A DNA stretch of 64,000 bases, from contig JAGVZQ010000001.1 of NCBI GenBank assembly GCA_018302465.1, positions 2,235 to 66,234 on the forward strand, written 5' to 3'. The notes below the pieces were generated by a model. The model did no database searches, had not been told where the DNA came from, and saw only the letters and a list, made by a program, of their open reading frames with translations. The stretch is from Candidatus Woesearchaeota archaeon (GTDB taxonomy: Archaea > Nanobdellota > Nanobdellia > SCGC-AAA011-G17 > GW2011-AR20). The first letter of the stretch is position 1; the number at the start of each line of letters is the position of its first letter. The position numbers and the translations under genes were made by a program. Below are positions 51,386 through 63,400 of this stretch, piece by piece.

Positions 51386-52483
51386 CTACTCTAAAAATTC
51401 CTTATTCTTTATCTTCTCTGGTAAATATTTTTCTGATATAAAACTTACCCCTTTAGTTGCCAAAGCCTGAATTTCTACTTTTCCATTAAACTCTTTCATC
51501 ATTTTGAATTGTTTTTGCCATTCTTTGTTGTCCTTGAACCATTCATATTGCGAGACTTGTTTTATCCTTGCTAAATCTTTTTCATCCAATTTAATTAACT
51601 GTTTTTTTAGATCGTACTTAACTATATCGTCCATGGTAATACCAATGTATTTAACTGAAGGTATTGTCAACCTTTCAGATGCATGTGCCAGGGCTATAGA
51701 ACCATATTTTACCACAGAATATATATATATACCATAAACATCCCCATCACAGAGAACATAAATCGGCAAATTTCCTTCTTCTGCGAGCCTTTGCAATAAT
51801 CTCCTGATTCCCCTTGTAGTTTGACCCTGGCTTGTTATTAAGATGCAACCATTTTTCTGCCAAAACTTGTCTTCATTCAATCTTTCGAATATTGCTGCTT
51901 TCTCCATATATAACACAAATTTAGCATTTATCTTTTTAAACTGCAATTCATCTGTGATAGAAGGAATAGAATAACCCCCCCTGCCAAGCTTAGAGCAGTC
52001 TATGGTGTCTCCGCTGTCTATTAAACTGACATTTCCAACCATGCTGCCCATCTTATTTGCTGATACATGCAATTGTTCTCTTGATAAACCAGTTATAACT
52101 TCAAGGTCTTCAATTACTTTGTCAGATTCAACTTGCTCATCTACTATATTGATATTAGTTCCAGGTATTGTTCTTTTCGTTATGTAGAAGACTCCTCTAA
52201 GATGCTCATGCTTCCCAGTATCTAATAATTCTTTTTTTAGGATGCTTGCTACTTCAACTGTCTGCAGGAATTTTTTTGCATGACCAAGATTGAAGAAACT
52301 CCTTTTCCCCTCTTTGCTTCCAAGTTGCAATGTTCCAGTTTTTTTATTGTATTCTATGTTTGATAGGGCTCTAATCGGCAGGGTAATCTCTGGATTTTTC
52401 ATTGATTTTACCTGCTGCACAAGATTTTTGCCCAGCTGCTCAAGTGTAATTTTTGAATTACTCTTTGTCTGTGTCTTTTTCAT
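51386..52483 (-). CDS. top6A: DNA topoisomerase VI subunit A (Spo11 homologue)
   Basis: Toprim DxD in YVLCDGDVYG. Full-length (365 aa) similarity to Top6A. Its start overlaps the top6B 3' end by 26 nt. Confidence 0.9.
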   Translation of the reverse strand: MKKTQTKSNSKITLEQLGKNLVQQVKSMKNPEITLPIRALSNIEYNKKTGTLQLGSKEGKRSFFNLGHAKKFLQTVEVASILKKELLDTGKHEHLRGVFYITKRTIPGTNINIVDEQVESDKVIEDLEVITGLSREQLHVSANKMGSMVGNVSLIDSGDTIDCSKLGRGGYSIPSITDELQFKKINAKFVLYMEKAAIFERLNEDKFWQKNGCILITSQGQTTRGIRRLLQRLAEEGNLPIYVLCDGDVYGIYIYSVVKYGSIALAHASERLTIPSVKYIGITMDDIVKYDLKKQLIKLDEKDLARIKQVSQYEWFKDNKEWQKQFKMMKEFNGKVEIQALATKGVSFISEKYLPEKIKNKEFLE

Positions 52484-55400
52484 TTTTTGCTTGTTTAACC
52501 TCTCCTAGCAATAAGGGAAGCTCCTTCTTTAATTTCTTTTCCAGATTCTCTTTAATAACCTCTTTCTTTTCGCCAGATAGTATACTTAATGAAGATGCTA
52601 ACTCAGGAATGTATTTTTCAAATAAATTTGCCCTTTCTCTCTGTTCTTTTGCTCTTACATTTTTTCTTATGTGTGTTGCTAATTTTCTTCCAACTTCCTG
52701 CAAGGCTAATTTCAATTCTTTTAAGATTTCTGGGTAATGGGCTATTGCTTCCTTGCTTTCTGAAGTGAAAGGAACCCATACTGAAGCTACATGGATTAAA
52801 ATAACTACAGGACCTGCAGGCAATGCTCCTTTGCTCTGAGACAAACCATAATTTCTCCATGTTGTTGAGACAACTGCTTTTGTTGTTGCACAGGCACTTA
52901 ATTGGTATAGTAAAGGGACTCTGTTTGCAAATCTATAGATCTTTACCAATTCATCTGATGGTAAATTACCTCTATAAGCGAGACCTACCTCAATAATAAA
53001 AGGATTTCCTCGATAAACACTTGGAGGTCTTGATACTGCAGTGTAAAATTCCGCACCCACCTCCTTTTTTAATCCTTTAATTATTAATTCTTCCCCTATT
53101 GGTGTAACGCAGTCTGTTGGAGGAGACATTATTTTTGTAGCATTTAAAGATTTATATAGAATTTCAGCTTCCTGCATTGCAATTCTTTCAGGTCTTGCGC
53201 CGCAGTCTAGACTTGATTTTTCACATACATCTTTAGCAACTTTTGCACTAATTCTACAGAAATCATTCTGCAAAAAACTCTGTAAGGTTTTTGCTTGTGT
53301 ATCATGAAGCATCTTTATTAAAATGCCAAGCTCAATACCATGAGGATGAGGCTTTATTTCTTTGGATTCTTTAGGCAATTGATTTGTTGCTCTTGGAAAT
53401 TCTGATTTTTCTCCCTCTGGATTAATGTAAGTTAGAGATAGATGAGGATTGACAATTGCCGTCTGCTTTAGATATTGGTCTACACTTTGATTTCCTTTCT
53501 GATATTTTGCTGTTAATTCTATTTCAACTTTTGTTCCTGTTTTTTTCTCAGGCCAATCAAGATCATGCTCTTGCACTATCTTTGGCTCGTTTGTTTTTGT
53601 ATCAATTATTAATTCGAAATAATGAGCTAATTTTTTTGGATTTGTTTTAGAAGTTATTTTTGCTGGCTTTCCTGTGGTTAATTGGCCGTACATGCATGAA
53701 GCTGAGTTATGGACGATTATTCCATTTGCAACAAAGTTATTACCTTGCGCCATAGTTAAATCATATACATAGTTATGTCTTTTTTCCACTCTTTTTTTAG
53801 ATGTTACTTTTGTCCATGTTACATTTGAATTAAGAAGACAGTAAAGTTCCTGTAGTTCTATAGGCGGCTTTTTTAGATCCGTTTTGGAAATAAAGAAATT
53901 TACAATTCCTTGCAGTGTAGTCATATCTACAGATTTGTTTTTATGGCATATTACTTGTGGGGTTGGAAACTCTTTATAAGGTATTTTTAATTTGTTCTTT
54001 AGGCTGAAAATCTTTTTCCTTATGAAGGGGATTAATTCTGTTTCTCTACTTCCATTGTTATATCCTTCTACTATCTCTTTTAGGATATTTTTCTTTTTTG
54101 GATGAGAAAACCCAATCTCTTTATTGAAATTACAAATATTTTCTATTCCGCTAATAACTATTCTCTTATCTTCTCCTGCTTTATTTATCCTGCCCACAAC
54201 TCCAAATTGCAGCAAAAACATATTTATGTATGAAATCATTGCATCATTCCTTATCATAAAACTAACAGTTTTTCTATCTTTAGAAACATGCGCTTCGCAA
54301 TCAAAAAGAGCTTGCAAATAAGGTCTGAGTAAATCTTTTCTGTGTAATAAAGGAATTAATCTAAATGTATTGTGTTTTTTTCCTGATGGTACCCCGCATT
54401 TATTTATTATCCTTGATACAAGAGAAGAAGAAAACTGAGCCATTTGCCCTCTTCCTTTAGAATGAATTATTGTTCTTGCTTTCAAACCAAATAGATTTTT
54501 AGCTATTTTTCTAAATTCTCTTATTAGGTGTGCATTATTATTCCAAAAAGATATGTTTCTCCCCCACCTATTAGCTGATTCTTTTTGAGAATGACCATCG
54601 CCAGAAATAAATCCTAAGAATCTCATGAAACTATCATCTATATAATTTGGTAGAGTTATGTATGTGCCTAATTTTCCCACCCTTGTACAATTTTTTATTA
54701 GCTCCTCTTTTGAGATTCCTAAATCATCTGCAAACAATTCTAAAATTTTCTTATTAGGTCTTCTTCTTATATACGTCTTTTTCCAGCCTTTTATTTGATC
54801 TTTTTTTATATTAAATCTCTTTGCTACGCTATTCCAATTTTTGTATTTCTTTTTTAGATTTTCCAAAATCGTTCCTATGAACTCACTGTTATCTATTCTA
54901 ACCTCTTCATCTAAAAAGTCAAAAAGAGGAATTTTGCAGTCTTTTACGTGTGTACCTAGTTTTTTTGCCACTGCTATGTGCTCTCCTTCGCTTATGTCAT
55001 CTGCATCCTTCCACTTATACCCTCCTTCATCTATTACTAATACTGGATTTTCTGGTGTTAACTGTATACTCCTCCCTCTTAAAACATCTAGCTTTACCAT
55101 ATATGGTGGTGAGGGAATTTTCCAAAACCTGTCGATTTTTCCTAGACCAAACTTAAAAGTTGGTGTTAAAACAAATAAATCTGCATTTGGTTTTTCTTCC
55201 ACAATATTTTCTATAGACAAAACCTTGCCGTCTCCCAGAGTGATTAGAGTGTCAGGAGTCATACATATCCCAATTCCTTGCTGACCACGACTACAGCGCA
55301 ATCTATGAAATTTTGAACCGTACAATAATTTAGCAAATATCCTTGGAATCTGCTCTTTTACAATGCCTGGACCATTGTCTTCAACTATTACAATAAATCT

Positions 55401-57194
55401 ATCTTCAGAAACAGGCTTTATTTCTACTTTTATTTCTGGAACAATTCTTGCTTCCTCAGCAGCGTCTAATGAATTATGACAAAGGATTGCTCCCACTCCC
55501 GCAACAAAATTCTCGCAATTTGGAACAGATACATCATATACCCATTCGCGGTCGTATTGAATTTCTTCTATACTTCTAATTCTTAAAACACCAAGATCGC
55601 TTTCTAAAAGTGTTTTAACATTCCTGTATACACTTATGTTTTGGGCGGATAAACCTGTTTTTAAAACTTTAAATGAGAGATTAATCTGGTTATCTCGGTT
55701 TATAGAATATCTAAGTTTTGAATCTGTTGTGCCGATTATTGTATCTTTAATCGGGAGGAGGTTTAAATGGCTGTCCTTGCCACTTGTGTATACGTAAATT
55801 TGGTAACTTTTTCCATACTTTGTTTTAATATTATTAATAATCCGTTCTGATTCATTTGTCATGCCAGTGCTGTAACTTAAACCTAAAGAAGATAGCAAAT
55901 ATTGTAAACCTATAAAAAGTTCTGAACTTGCTGTGGCACAAGTTATTTTTTCTATACTTAGTTCAGGCAATATCCCCTTATGCCTTAGCAGTTTGAACAG
56001 CTCTTTGCTCGGATAGCCATCACCTGAAAGATACGCCAGTAAAAATGTATATTTTAAATTATAGCTAAAACTGTGCACAATCTCTGGTATCTTTTTTGAA
56101 TTTGCATAATCCCCAACCTTAAAAATATGCTTAAATACAAAACAAATTATGCTTGAATTAGAGATGACATTATATGCCGTATTGTGGGCTTTTTTGATTT
56201 TAGGATGGACTTTAAAAATCTTTTCAAACAAATCAGCTAGATAATTCACCATTTCTTTCTCATGATCACCAAAAGAGAAATGAATTCTGTTTAATGAGCG
56301 TAGCATAGAGCCCTCAGATGCGTAGAATCCAAGTAATTCTGCCAACTTATTATCCGCATTTATAATCACGGGTATTTTATGGGGGCTGTATAAATATCCT
56401 AAACGGGAATCTGAAAGTCTGTTGATATCGATCTTGAGCTTCCTAAGAATGTTAAATGGCAAATAATTGAATCTCTTGAAATCATTAATTCTGTATTTTC
56501 TAGATTCTGGAAAAATTCCCTTTAGCTGATTAATAACATCATCTGTAAGGATATTATTAATTCCGTGGATGTATATTTTTTTAGTAAGTTCTGGGTCAAG
56601 CATTAAAAGCTCTTCAATAAGGTTTATCTCACTCATTGTGTAATCGCTATTCCAGCTTGATCTAGGGACAATAAGGGGTGTTCCAACCTTAAGAGCGGTT
56701 GTAGGAACTGAGATTACTTCTCCTTTGTCTATGGTAAAAACCGAATGATAAGCTGTGAGGTCTACATATCTTCCTGAGGTGAGCTTTACCCTATAAATCT
56801 TACTATTTACTTTATGCCTAAATAATGTTGAAACCGGATGGAATGATAATTTTAATGTTTTTTTGTCAAAGGCGAGAGCCTCTATGCTTTCTTGCGCGGT
56901 AATTTTTTCTAGACCGCCATCTCTCGAAATGCAAATTTTTGTTTTGTTCTTTTTTAACTCGGTATCAATTAACTCTCCTATCTTAGTTAAAGAGATTTTT
57001 CCTTTTTTTCTTACAAGAATAGGCATATCGTAAGTCAAGCTATTATCACATGCTTCTTTTATGGTTGTTAATAATGCTTTTCTTGGATTATCAAAACCCA
57101 GAAGATGTTTATTTTTTACGAAGAACTCTGATATTGAAATTTCTCTTTGTCCTTTTGCTAAATCCTCTGCTGTTACTTGCTTTTCTGCTGGCAT
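52458..57194 (-). CDS. top6B: DNA topoisomerase VI subunit B interrupted by two inteins (1578 aa precursor, ~535 aa mature)
   Basis: N-terminus ISEFFVKNKHLLGFDNPRKALLTTIKEACDN | SLDAAEEARIVPEIKV reconstitutes the Bergerat N-box ENSLDA. GQQGIGI | SASCMYGQLTTGKP reconstitutes the G2 box. The C-terminal transducer domain is present. Confidence 0.9.
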   Translation of the reverse strand: MPAEKQVTAEDLAKGQREISISEFFVKNKHLLGFDNPRKALLTTIKEACDNSLTYDMPILVRKKGKISLTKIGELIDTELKKNKTKICISRDGGLEKITAQESIEALAFDKKTLKLSFHPVSTLFRHKVNSKIYRVKLTSGRYVDLTAYHSVFTIDKGEVISVPTTALKVGTPLIVPRSSWNSDYTMSEINLIEELLMLDPELTKKIYIHGINNILTDDVINQLKGIFPESRKYRINDFKRFNYLPFNILRKLKIDINRLSDSRLGYLYSPHKIPVIINADNKLAELLGFYASEGSMLRSLNRIHFSFGDHEKEMVNYLADLFEKIFKVHPKIKKAHNTAYNVISNSSIICFVFKHIFKVGDYANSKKIPEIVHSFSYNLKYTFLLAYLSGDGYPSKELFKLLRHKGILPELSIEKITCATASSELFIGLQYLLSSLGLSYSTGMTNESERIINNIKTKYGKSYQIYVYTSGKDSHLNLLPIKDTIIGTTDSKLRYSINRDNQINLSFKVLKTGLSAQNISVYRNVKTLLESDLGVLRIRSIEEIQYDREWVYDVSVPNCENFVAGVGAILCHNSLDAAEEARIVPEIKVEIKPVSEDRFIVIVEDNGPGIVKEQIPRIFAKLLYGSKFHRLRCSRGQQGIGICMTPDTLITLGDGKVLSIENIVEEKPNADLFVLTPTFKFGLGKIDRFWKIPSPPYMVKLDVLRGRSIQLTPENPVLVIDEGGYKWKDADDISEGEHIAVAKKLGTHVKDCKIPLFDFLDEEVRIDNSEFIGTILENLKKKYKNWNSVAKRFNIKKDQIKGWKKTYIRRRPNKKILELFADDLGISKEELIKNCTRVGKLGTYITLPNYIDDSFMRFLGFISGDGHSQKESANRWGRNISFWNNNAHLIREFRKIAKNLFGLKARTIIHSKGRGQMAQFSSSLVSRIINKCGVPSGKKHNTFRLIPLLHRKDLLRPYLQALFDCEAHVSKDRKTVSFMIRNDAMISYINMFLLQFGVVGRINKAGEDKRIVISGIENICNFNKEIGFSHPKKKNILKEIVEGYNNGSRETELIPFIRKKIFSLKNKLKIPYKEFPTPQVICHKNKSVDMTTLQGIVNFFISKTDLKKPPIELQELYCLLNSNVTWTKVTSKKRVEKRHNYVYDLTMAQGNNFVANGIIVHNSASCMYGQLTTGKPAKITSKTNPKKLAHYFELIIDTKTNEPKIVQEHDLDWPEKKTGTKVEIELTAKYQKGNQSVDQYLKQTAIVNPHLSLTYINPEGEKSEFPRATNQLPKESKEIKPHPHGIELGILIKMLHDTQAKTLQSFLQNDFCRISAKVAKDVCEKSSLDCGARPERIAMQEAEILYKSLNATKIMSPPTDCVTPIGEELIIKGLKKEVGAEFYTAVSRPPSVYRGNPFIIEVGLAYRGNLPSDELVKIYRFANRVPLLYQLSACATTKAVVSTTWRNYGLSQSKGALPAGPVVILIHVASVWVPFTSESKEAIAHYPEILKELKLALQEVGRKLATHIRKNVRAKEQRERANLFEKYIPELASSLSILSGEKKEVIKENLEKKLKKELPLLLGEVKQAKNEKDTDKE
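53706..55265 (-). mobile_element. Intein 2 in Top6B (520 aa, residues C644-N1163) with LAGLIDADG homing-endonuclease domain
   Basis: Starts CMTPDTLITLGDG (block A). Blocks FLGFISGDGHS and LQALFDCEAHVS. Ends NGIIVHN with +1 Ser. The junction restores GQQGIGI-SA. Confidence 0.85.
55473..57041 (-). mobile_element. Intein 1 in Top6B (523 aa, residues S52-N574) with LAGLIDADG homing-endonuclease domain
   Basis: Block A SLTYDMPIL (Ser1 nucleophile). LAGLIDADG-like blocks LLGFYASEGSM and LLAYLSGDGYP. Block G ...GAILCHN followed by +1 Ser. The excised junction restores CDN-SLDA. Confidence 0.8.
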
Positions 57195-60474: not shown

Positions 60475-63400
60475 TTACATCTTACTTATATGACCCGATT
60501 TAGGCTCAAAAATTTCTCCTTCTCTTTTTAATTTTTCTATAGCTTCTTGAACATGTACTTCATCTATTCCTTTTTCCGCAGCTTCAGCAATAATCTCTTC
60601 TATTGGAATATCCTTTCCTAGTTTTTTGTCTAAAGAGAATATTATTTCACGGAGAGCTACAATTCTTGACCTTTGTGATGAAGATATTCCGGTGCTGATT
60701 CTGTCTATGTCTATCTGGCCTGTTTCCGGATCAATACCAACCTGCATTAAGCAATGCTTTAGTAGCCTAATTGATCTTTTTGAATCTTCTCTTGTAACTT
60801 TTTTTGATAATCTTACTCTTGCAGAACCTTCTGCTAATCTAACTAATGCTTCTAATTGTCTTGCGGATATAGGTATTGGTCTTATACCTTCTTCTCCTGT
60901 AGTTCCTGAATTTCTTAATTCCACATAAAAAGTCATAATCTCATCAACTGCTGCATCTGTTAATACTGGATTTACTCTATTTTTTGTGTAAGAAATATAT
61001 TTTCTAAATAGTTTAGGCGGAACTTCTGATTTTAATTCAGATGGTTTTTGTTGAAGCTTTAATACATGTGAGGCAATTAATTTATCTTTTTCTTTGTTTG
61101 GAATATCTCTAACAGGAAATATTAAATCAAATCTGTTAATCAAAGCAGGAGGCAAATCAATTTGGGATGCTATTGGAGCATATGGATCAAACCTGCCTAA
61201 TTTTGGGTTTGCTGCTGCTAAAACTGTTGTCCTAGAATTTAAGGTTGCCTGGATATTAGCTTTTGAGATACTAATTCTCTGCTGCTCCATTGCTTCATGC
61301 ATAGCTGATGTATCTTCTACTGTCATCTTATCTAATTCATCAATGCAGTTGTGGACGATTATACCATCTGCAAAAAAGTTGTGCTTTTCCGGCACGTATA
61401 AATCATATACATACCCCTTGTATTTGTGCTTTTTAATTTTTATAATTTTATCTAAAAAGTAGTCTCTTTTTATGAGATTCAAAGCGCTGGAGATTGTTTC
61501 ATGGTCTATTTTATCTCTTGTCCTAGTAATTATTTTTAATAATTGTTTTCTAGATGGTTCCCTCTTCATATGCTTAAAATCGTAAATTGAGCTCCAAACC
61601 CCTTTATTGATTAAGTAAGATTTATTTAATTTTGATATTTTTGTACATAAACCTCCCGTGACCATTCTCGGAATCTTATCGCTAAAACAGGATATATCTA
61701 TACGCTTCTCTAAGAATTTTGTTTTTCTTATTTTTACAGAAAATCCTTTTAATTCTTTAATCATGCAGTCGATATCACTTCTTCCGCTTACAACCACTGC
61801 CTTTATTTTGCTTTTGAGATTTTCTTTTACATTTCCATAGCAATCCAATCTTCTTAATGCGATTAAGAAATTTAAATTATCACGAAGATTATTACTAAAC
61901 AAGAATTGTATGTTTTGAGTGTAATATTTTTTTCCATTTTTTGTGCAATGCTTTTTGCTGATGCACCCATCGGAATCCATTAGCCCTGCAATAAATCCTT
62001 TTAGTGATTCTGTTGGCAAGGATATCAGATTTTGCAAGGAATTTTTCGTATAAATGCTATATAACTCTCCTATCAAGTTACTTCCTATCCCAAGATTGTT
62101 ATACTGTACAGTTATCTTCTTATTATCTAATATAACCTCTCTTTTAAATTTGTACTCTGGGAGATTTTTTGAAGAGATTATACTCCAGCATCTCTTAAGT
62201 TCGTTAACATATTCTTTATGGGCTGCTGATTGTGTAATCAATATACTTGTTCTTCTTTTATTAATACAAACATGTCCGTCACCATGAATAAACCCTAAAA
62301 TATATGCTAGTTCGGGGGTAATTCTTGTTATCTTCAACCTTTCGCCATTAGACACCCTTCCATATTTCAGAGGCTTACGCTTCCAATAGTCCCCTATTTG
62401 GAAATAATTTATTACTTCTGTGAACTTTTGCTTTGTTAGTTGTAGACCCCCAGAGATAAAATTTTTATCTATACTAAATTTTCTGTTAAATTCACTTAGT
62501 GTTTTGAATCCTTTTTTGATTGTTTGTTTTAACTCTTCCTTTTCTTCTTTATTTAAAAATATCTTCCAATTATTTGGGATGATGTCAAAAATGAGAATCT
62601 CTTTATTATTGTCTGGTAATTTTAAAGGGGCTAGAATCTTATCACCTGTCTTGAATTTTCCTGCTGTTTTCCATTTCAGATTATTGCCGTTTATCAAAGG
62701 GTGATCCGGAGTTAATTTTATTCTGAAACCAGAAGTGAATCTTAACTCAATTAGTTCTCCTTCGTATCTTTTTCTTCTTATTAAGGGCGATTTTATTTTT
62801 TTAGTTTCTAATTCTCTTAAATCAAATCCAAAACTATCTATTTGGGCTTGACTAATTTCTACTAATTCGGTATTGCATTTTCCGAATATTTTCTTATTTT
62901 TATTAAACAATTTGGATATGGGCTGGAGCGTATTATTGTTTATTATTTGTGTTTGTGGGTGCAGGCAACAAATTCCATTATTGGCTAGGACTAATGCACC
63001 TGCTTCTAAGGCCCAACCCTTTAGGAATTCATCTTTTACTACAGAAGCTGAAATTCCTGCACCCGACGCTCCCTTCCCAGAAACAAATCTCGCTTTTGGA
63101 GCTAATTTTGCGACAAAAGTGAGGAGCTGAGATTTTCCACTGCCCGGATCACCACATAAAAGTATATGTATGTCTCCTCTTGTAGTAGTTCCATCTTCTT
63201 TTTGCTTTCTTACTCCCCCCATTAATTGGAGAAGAATTGCTTCTTTTATATCCTCATGACCGTAAATAGAAGGAGCTATTGATTGAATGAAATTTTCATA
63301 TAGTCTTTCACTTTTTGATAAATCTAAGATTTCTTTTTCTTCTTCAGGATTGATCTCTATATCCTGATAAGCTTCATCTATTGGTTCTATGAAGTTAGAG

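Follow-up and report, generated by a model that had tools for sequence, protein, structure and literature searches.

The window analysed here, a stretch of 64,000 nucleotides from a contig of a Candidatus Woesearchaeota archaeon (JAGVZQ010000001.1, positions 2,235 to 66,234), carries on its minus strand a gene for subunit B of topoisomerase VI (top6B), whose open reading frame encloses two inteins and is uninterrupted across all its 1578 codons (4.7 kb). The gene, the parts into which the inteins divide it and the partner gene top6A lie as follows, in coordinates of the window:

52458..57194, minus strand: open reading frame of the top6B precursor, 1578 residues plus stop, with the two inteins inside Top6B
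57042..57194, minus strand: extein E1, residues 1-51, up to the N-box ...KEACDN, whose last Asn corresponds to N42 of S. shibatae
55473..57041, minus strand: intein 1, 523 residues (52-574), starting SLTYDMP... with Ser1, block F VYDVSV, C-terminus ILCHN, Ser at +1
56745..56756, minus strand: block B of intein 1, T-A-Y-H, the canonical TxxH
56307..56336, minus strand: LAGLIDADG motif 1 of intein 1, LLGFYASEGS, acidic residue Glu243 of the intein
56013..56042, minus strand: LAGLIDADG motif 2 of intein 1, LLAYLSGDGY, acidic residue Asp341 of the intein
55266..55472, minus strand: extein E2, residues 575-643 (69 residues), SLDAAEE...DNGPGI (G1 box)...SRGQQGIGI (G2 box)
53706..55265, minus strand: intein 2, 520 residues (644-1163), starting CMTPDTL... 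with Cys1, block F VYDLTM, C-terminus IIVHN, Ser at +1
55047..55058, minus strand: block B of intein 2, T-P-E-N, with Asn in the place of the B10 His
54591..54620, minus strand: LAGLIDADG motif 1 of intein 2, FLGFISGDGH, acidic residue Asp223 of the intein
54288..54317, minus strand: LAGLIDADG motif 2 of intein 2, LQALFDCEAH, acidic residue Glu324 of the intein
52458..53705, minus strand: extein E3, residues 1164-1578 plus stop, which takes in the remainder of the GHKL domain along with the H2TH region and the transducer domain
51386..52483, minus strand: top6A, 365 residues, for the partner subunit; it shares the operon with top6B and overlaps its end by 26 nucleotides

A sequence-only reading of this DNA had placed the inserts at S52-N574 and C644-N1163 and predicted that their excision leaves a Top6B of about 535 residues. 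The boundaries proved exact (S52-N574 runs from 57041 down to 55473, and C644-N1163 from 55265 down to 53706), and E1 (51 residues), E2 (69) and E3 (415) give a spliced protein of 535 residues with the junctions KEACDN/SLDAAEEA and GQQGIGI/SASCMYGQ, in which, as below, the slash marks the junction. The inteins (523 + 520 residues) account for 66.1% of the coding length, in line with the two-thirds estimated before. When scanned with the equivalog model of Top6B, NCBIfam NF003218, the spliced extein matched in a single stretch (residues 9-530, 716 bits versus a cutoff of 274), and in the unspliced precursor the match was broken into three stretches; Top6B was also matched by TIGR01052 (559 bits versus a cutoff of 381) and, in E3, by Pfam Topo-VIb_trans (E about 1e-60, from 2e-61 to 1e-60). 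The alignment to intein-free Top6B, which had been proposed as a check, gave a contiguous protein, gapless at both junctions, against Top6B of M. mazei (2q2e_B, E 9e-170). Top6B of S. shibatae (2zbk_B) could be aligned to the extein as well, and the E..N of the N-box, the DNGxG of G1 and the GxxGxG of G2 were all seen in the alignments. By these matches, the host gene is that of topoisomerase VI subunit B, a GHKL ATPase with a transducer domain. The order of genes eIF-1A, KH protein, top6B and top6A was syntenic across all three contigs compared, and an NCBI protein with 88% identity is annotated as Top6B of Candidatus Woesearchaeota archaeon.

Both inteins lie in ATP-binding motifs, as had been proposed from the sequence. 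With positions counted along the alignments, intein 1 is inserted directly after the Asn of the N-box (N42/S43 in S. shibatae, N48/S49 in M. mazei), and intein 2 directly after the GxxGxG of the G2 box (G106-G111 in S. shibatae, with the junction at V112/K113; I117/S118 in M. mazei). We take N42 to be the Mg2+-coordinating Asn, and use the name 'G2 box', from what is generally held of GHKL ATPases. The label 'ATP-lid N-box', under which the first site had been described, merged two different motifs and was dropped, since N-box and ATP lid are distinct.

Each insert has HN at its end, with a Ser next to it (CHN/S in intein 1 and VHN/S in intein 2), and holds two LAGLIDADG blocks (LLGFYASEGS and LLAYLSGDGY in intein 1, FLGFISGDGH and LQALFDCEAH in intein 2), exactly as first noticed. 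The Asp of block F (F4), the penultimate His, the terminal Asn and the +1 Ser are present in both, and the features of class 2 and class 3 (Ala1 in the place of the nucleophile, or the WCT triplet with a Cys at F4) were not found, as both inteins have a nucleophile at position 1 and an Asp at F4 (VYD). Scanned alone, each intein was matched above cutoff by Pfam Intein_splicing (E 1.1e-19 for intein 1 and 6.7e-25 for intein 2) and LAGLIDADG_3 (E 5e-07 and 1.9e-16, respectively), and the NCBIfam models intein_Nterm and intein_Cterm each found two stretches in the Top6B precursor. Scores of this kind rule out a chance resemblance. A Gly follows the catalytic acidic residue in three of the four LAGLIDADG motifs, and an Ala in motif 2 of intein 2. 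Judged by these motifs, both inserts are class 1 inteins with a nested, predicted LAGLIDADG endonuclease of the double-motif type. With guanine plus cytosine contents of 0.337 and 0.319, the inteins did not stand out from the extein (0.350) or the window (0.322), and thus gave no compositional sign of a recent foreign origin.

Among proteins of solved structure, the best sequence relatives of intein 1 were PI-PkoII (intein 2 of T. kodakarensis PolB, 2cw7; E 2.8e-29) and the Mja TFIIB intein (5o9i; E 5.5e-27). PI-PkoII was matched over the N-terminal part of the Hint domain, the LAGLIDADG region and the C-terminal part of the Hint domain; both relatives, however, belong to other host proteins and sites, and share only about 16-30% identity. 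PI-PkoII presumably starts with a Ser too. The PDB sequence matches of intein 2 were the Pho CDC21-1 and Ssp DnaB inteins. For intein 2, a model was also built with AlphaFold2 from an alignment of seven sequences (the intein of the window and six orthologs), with a pLDDT of 87.2 and a pTM of 0.87. Its best PDB matches were full-length intein endonucleases, namely PI-PkoII (E 1e-23), which is thus the best structural match of the model of intein 2 as well, the TliVMA intein (2e-22) and PI-PfuI (7e-18), and Foldseek also matched it to I-DmoI and I-Tsp061I. The modelled splicing domain superposed on the mini-inteins 6rpq, 1mi8 and 2in9 with root-mean-square deviations of 1.4-2.5 Å, and D223 and E324 stand at the C-terminal ends of the predicted helices 211-223 and 310-324.

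Intein-containing Top6B proteins form well over 100 clusters in public databases, from Woese-, Nano-, Iain- and Micrarchaeota and from other archaea. The inserts of the best 120 homologs, placed on the extein, map to the following sites:

Site a (intein 1), DN/SLDA: Ser at position 1, Ser at +1
Site b, KQ/SRGQQG: Ser at position 1, Ser at +1
Site c (intein 2), GIGI/SA: Cys at position 1, Ser at +1
Site d, PFQIE/CG: Cys at position 1, Cys at +1

This comparison of the insertion sites upheld the reading of the inserts as inteins. Among the 120 homologs, single inteins were found at site a in 37, at b in 57, at c in 5 and at d in 8; the combinations were a+c in 3, including the gene described here, a+b in 3, a+d, b+d and a+b+d in one each, the last being a Top6B of 2063 residues with three inteins (P0005). 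The proteins with the combinations other than a+c (a+b, a+d, b+d and a+b+d) are among the DPANN sequences P0005, P0007, P0008, P0044, P0048 and P0061. As for orthologs, 45 site-a relatives of intein 1 were extracted, and those of intein 2 at site c were 8 among the protein clusters plus 13 GTDB loci. Ser1 of intein 1, which had been singled out because it takes the place of a Cys, is indeed present, but it is no peculiarity: in an unconstrained alignment, Ser1 was found in every complete insert at sites a and b (of which 45 and 62, respectively, were then extracted), and Cys and Ser are both standard nucleophiles of class 1 inteins (PMC7664689). The inteins at sites a and b are 27-29% identical to each other (E about 1e-49) and share the start SLTxDxP and the end G.G.I.CHN; those at sites c and d are about 26% identical (E 1e-37). 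These similarities suggest two intein lineages, each established at two sites of top6B and, for sites a and b, 60 residues apart, they suggest the ectopic movement of one lineage between them.

Top6B inteins are common in small uncultured archaea and already catalogued. Novikova et al. (2016, PMC4760082) count Top6B among the archaeal intein hosts, with 15 inteins; an intein allele of top6B has been tracked in Halobacteria (Soucy et al. 2014, PMC4071816); and inteins were cut by hand from Top6B in a phylogeny of topoisomerases (PMC9348778). The inteins catalogued in PMC4760082 and PMC4071816 share with those of the window the host protein, the class 1 type and the location in conserved motifs, in a comparison made at the level of the host protein; the hosts here are of the DPANN type. 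The long site-b proteins (about 1300 residues) scored below the cutoff of the haloarchaeal Top6B model, which gave no hint to the site of the halobacterial allele. A survey of 2023 (PMC10643990) included only 2 DPANN genomes and no multi-intein genes among them.

Related loci were found in which site c, or both sites a and c, are empty. In P0002 (locus L076), the extein is 92% identical to that of the window and the same site-a intein is present, 92% identical, with site c uninterrupted at CSRGQQGLGI/SASSMYGQ; the DNA of this empty site reads TGCAGTCGTGGTCAGCAAGGATTGGGGATA/TCGGCATCTTCC... In P0037 (locus L077), whose extein is 89% identical, sites a and c are empty and site b is filled, and the DNA of the empty site a reads ...GCAGTAGATAAT/AGTTTAGACGCT... 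Between the window and P0002, the ratio of nonsynonymous to synonymous substitution rates (dN/dS) was 0.08 for the extein, with a dS of 0.57; it was 0.12, with a dS of 0.33, for the whole of intein 1 (55473..57041 compared with 3154..4722 of L076), and 0.114, with a dS of 0.315, for its endonuclease part. Purifying selection therefore acts on intein 1 and on its endonuclease part as well. Moreover, since the dS of the intein (0.33) is lower than that of the extein (0.57), intein 1 appears to have been shared more recently than the host gene diverged, which fits homing.

The splicing blocks that the sequence-only reading had named as marks of an intein were found only in part: the terminal HN is in place in both inserts, and the TxxH of block B is present in intein 1 (TAYH) but not in intein 2 (TPEN). 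In the latter, block B stands in the context G-R-S-I-Q-L-T-P-E-N-P-V, and Asn73 is aligned to the His of the Pho CDC21-1 (TPTHP) and Ssp DnaB (TANH) inteins. According to reviews, the block B His is the most conserved residue of inteins and is essential in many of them (PMC4031507, PMC6333167). TPEN, however, does not refute the intein nature of intein 2, because it is a conserved trait of the family and not a sign of decay. In fact, [TS]PEN was found in all 8 site-c orthologs from the protein clusters, and also in the 13 site-c Top6B loci of GTDB species representatives, whose hosts are Woesearchaeota, Nanoarchaeota, Iainarchaeia/Diapherotrites, Micrarchaeota and Hadarchaeota; the sole invariant His of the site-c family is the penultimate one. 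The want of the block B His lowers the canonicity of intein 2 and leaves its membership unaffected, since functional His-less inteins are documented (PMC4031507).

The documented functional case, in reviews up to 2020, is limited to the orthologs of the Tko CDC21-1 (MCM) intein, plus one pseudogene without this His. As described in the reviews that report the work of Tori et al. 2012 (PMC4031507, PMC6333167 and PMC7765530), the Tko intein lacks the block B His, as intein 2 does, has an ortholog-specific compensating Lys58 and, according to PMC4031507, is fully active. The likeness is drawn from these descriptions; the host of intein 2 is instead Top6B, and its B10 residue is Asn. Two CDC21-1 inteins of solved structure, those of Pho (6rpq) and Pab (6rpp), retain the block B His (TPTHP), unlike intein 2. 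The nearest relatives of intein 2 outside Top6B are MCM inteins that are also without this His (TxxT or TxxN).

A word-index homolog search with intein 2 alone gave 2 matches, probably owing to its Lys-rich words, and an exhaustive profile search was used instead, which collected 4023 representatives at E <= 1e-10. The block B His was absent from 98 of the 231 aligned N-terminal Hint domains from the best 150 (73 with Thr, 23 with Asn and 2 with Gln). Six related proteins were scanned, and all six were MCM helicases with the intein in the ATPase domain; the MCM inteins of Desulfurococcales at ...AAGL/C...HN/TAAV have TPEN too, and the site-d inteins of Top6B have T-x-N-N as block B. The His-less inteins (TxxT, TxxN, TxxQ) are contained in P0123-P0271 and in the loci L002-L014 and L025-L030, and belong to MCM and Top6B of DPANN, Hadarchaeota and Desulfurococcales. 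At profile position 85, 12 residues past B10, a Trp was found in 96 of the 98 His-less domains versus 21 of the 133 His-containing ones, and position 50 is aliphatic in the His-less group, and His or Arg otherwise. Trp85 and the aliphatic residue at position 50 may be a signature of the clade, either as a compensation for the missing His or as a plain clade marker.

Other candidates for such a compensation were considered. A bulky residue at -1 has been proposed in this role (Friedel et al. 2018, PMC6333167), but as a general solution it is weakened by the site-c orthologs of Iain- and Micrarchaeota, which have Ala at -1. Within the site-c family, K49 and K58 do not vary; however, Lys or Arg is equally frequent at these positions in the His-containing relatives, and the invariance was not taken as evidence for a compensating base.

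We give an even chance to the idea that intein 2 belongs to a large, largely undescribed clade of class 1 inteins whose initial acyl shift takes place with no His in block B, and we are equally divided on the scope proposed for it, which would take in sites c (T-P-E-N) and d (T-x-N-N) of Top6B and many MCM inteins (T-x-x-T or T-x-x-N). The conservation of TPEN suggests that His-independent activation of the N-terminal junction is far more widespread than the single published case. If this is true, the most conserved residue of inteins would be dispensable in a whole lineage, and intein 2 would offer a tractable second model for the study of this activation. What is new in this top6B gene, and only mildly so, is the conserved block B without His.

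Taking these results together, we consider it highly probable that two independent class 1 inteins, both full-length and both equipped with a nested double-motif LAGLIDADG endonuclease, have invaded the top6B of a Woesearchaeota-like (DPANN) archaeon, and that they are spliced out post-translationally. Following the class 1 chemistry summarised in PMC6333167 and PMC7765530, splicing would begin with an N-O acyl shift at Ser1 of intein 1 or an N-S acyl shift at Cys1 of intein 2, and proceed with the transesterification to Ser+1 and with the cyclisation of the terminal Asn, helped by the penultimate His; a final O-N shift would leave E1, E2 and E3 ligated to the 535-residue Top6B, with a contiguous N-box and G2 box. 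In intein 2, the N-terminal junction would be activated without the block B His, for which the compensatory mechanism of the Tko CDC21-1 intein is a precedent. With the N-box and the G2 box each interrupted, and the inteins only 69 residues apart, we infer that no functional GHKL domain exists until both are spliced, and Top6B would be inactive before that moment. The endonucleases, for their part, would cleave these conserved sites in alleles that lack an intein, and the inteins would spread by gene conversion, which would explain the mosaic occupancy of the four sites among close relatives.

Several points weigh against this interpretation. The splicing competence and the endonuclease activity of both inteins are what we infer from their motifs; intein 2 is without the very His that the reviews deem the most conserved; its nearest ortholog is 56% identical, too distant for a dN/dS estimate; and a second, intein-free copy of top6B may exist outside the 64-kb window. 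Moreover, the FD[CA]EG[SY] common to all 7 orthologs in motif 2 is FDCEAH in intein 2, a Gly-to-Ala change private to this copy, and its endonuclease may be weakened by the Ala beside the catalytic Glu. This last feature would suit a history in which the inteins are inherited only vertically and one endonuclease or both, mainly that of intein 2, are inactive relics, the whole being a post-translational passenger. Decay does occur in the family, since in some site-a orthologs a Lys replaces the acidic residue of motif 1 (FLGLFVAKGS), and a large share of archaeal inteins has no detectable endonuclease in the survey table of PMC10643990. However, both acidic residues are kept in both inteins, the low dN/dS of the endonuclease part of intein 1 (0.114) and the dS of this intein, below that of the extein, speak for a gene under selection and recently shared, and the mosaic occupancy among exteins 85-92% identical is what active homing predicts, so that we consider the relic history unlikely, although it retains more weight than the alternatives that follow.

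The lack of the block B His could, instead, make intein 2 a slow or conditional splicer that gates the maturation of Top6B as a regulatory 'panic button'. TPEN does stand in the place of TxxH, many inteins splice less or not at all once this His is lost (PMC6333167), and Novikova et al. (PMC4760082) speculate that inteins of replication proteins are stress-sensitive switches. Yet PEN is kept in all 21 orthologs, whose hosts span five or more archaeal phyla, and top6B is paired with top6A, which argues for an optimised functional solution; the His-less Tko CDC21-1 intein, too, is reported as fully active (PMC4031507). A gating role therefore seems to us quite improbable. It is hardly credible, finally, that this top6B is a decaying or dispensable copy which tolerates inserts. 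Two-thirds of the open reading frame are insert, and the limits of the window leave room for another copy elsewhere in the genome; on the other hand, the 4.7-kb frame is intact with an extein dN/dS of 0.08, all the GHKL and transducer motifs are kept, with 716 bits against the cutoff of 274, the operon with top6A is conserved, and the same architecture is found in many lineages.

For the invasion of top6B by two inteins, the haloarchaeal MCM helicase, with its intein sites a-d (PMC10643990), provides the closest parallel of arrangement that we considered: as in Top6B, a single essential gene has several sites set closely within its ATPase core, their occupancy is mosaic among relatives, and double and triple alleles occur. 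The two systems differ in that Top6B is a GHKL ATPase and MCM an AAA+ ATPase, and the inteins of the window are 69 codons apart. Interference in homing between neighbouring inteins has been shown for MCM only, and the four mosaic sites of Top6B could serve as a natural system for the competition between neighbouring inteins. The gene is also a further case in which inteins target the motifs where enzymes of replication and topology bind nucleotides. For annotation, the open reading frame of 1578 residues is to be read as a 535-residue Top6B plus two mobile elements, and phylogenies or structure predictions of DPANN Top6B will first have to strip up to three inteins.

A near-exact copy of the precursor is already in ENA (P0001), with the single substitution I249T. 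The corresponding metagenome contig (L001, ERZ27254845) differs from the window at 5 of the 13365 aligned bases, all inside inteins, at positions 56442, 56449 and 56451 (intein 1), 54177 (intein 2) and 62316 (MCM intein). About 35% of that 13365-base stretch is intein, and only one of the changes alters an amino acid of Top6B, namely that of I249T.

The third of these inteins lies in a neighbouring gene for the MCM helicase (60478..>64000, minus strand, cut by the end of the window), in the Walker B region. It is a LAGLIDADG intein of 540 residues at 61348..62967, with the junctions LANNGIC/CLHPQ...GIIVHN/CIDELDKM and a canonical block B, TPDH. A six-frame scan of the window with two intein profiles for further inteins found this MCM intein only. 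Thus, three inteins, two in Top6B and one in MCM, are present in two replication and topology genes within 10 kb.

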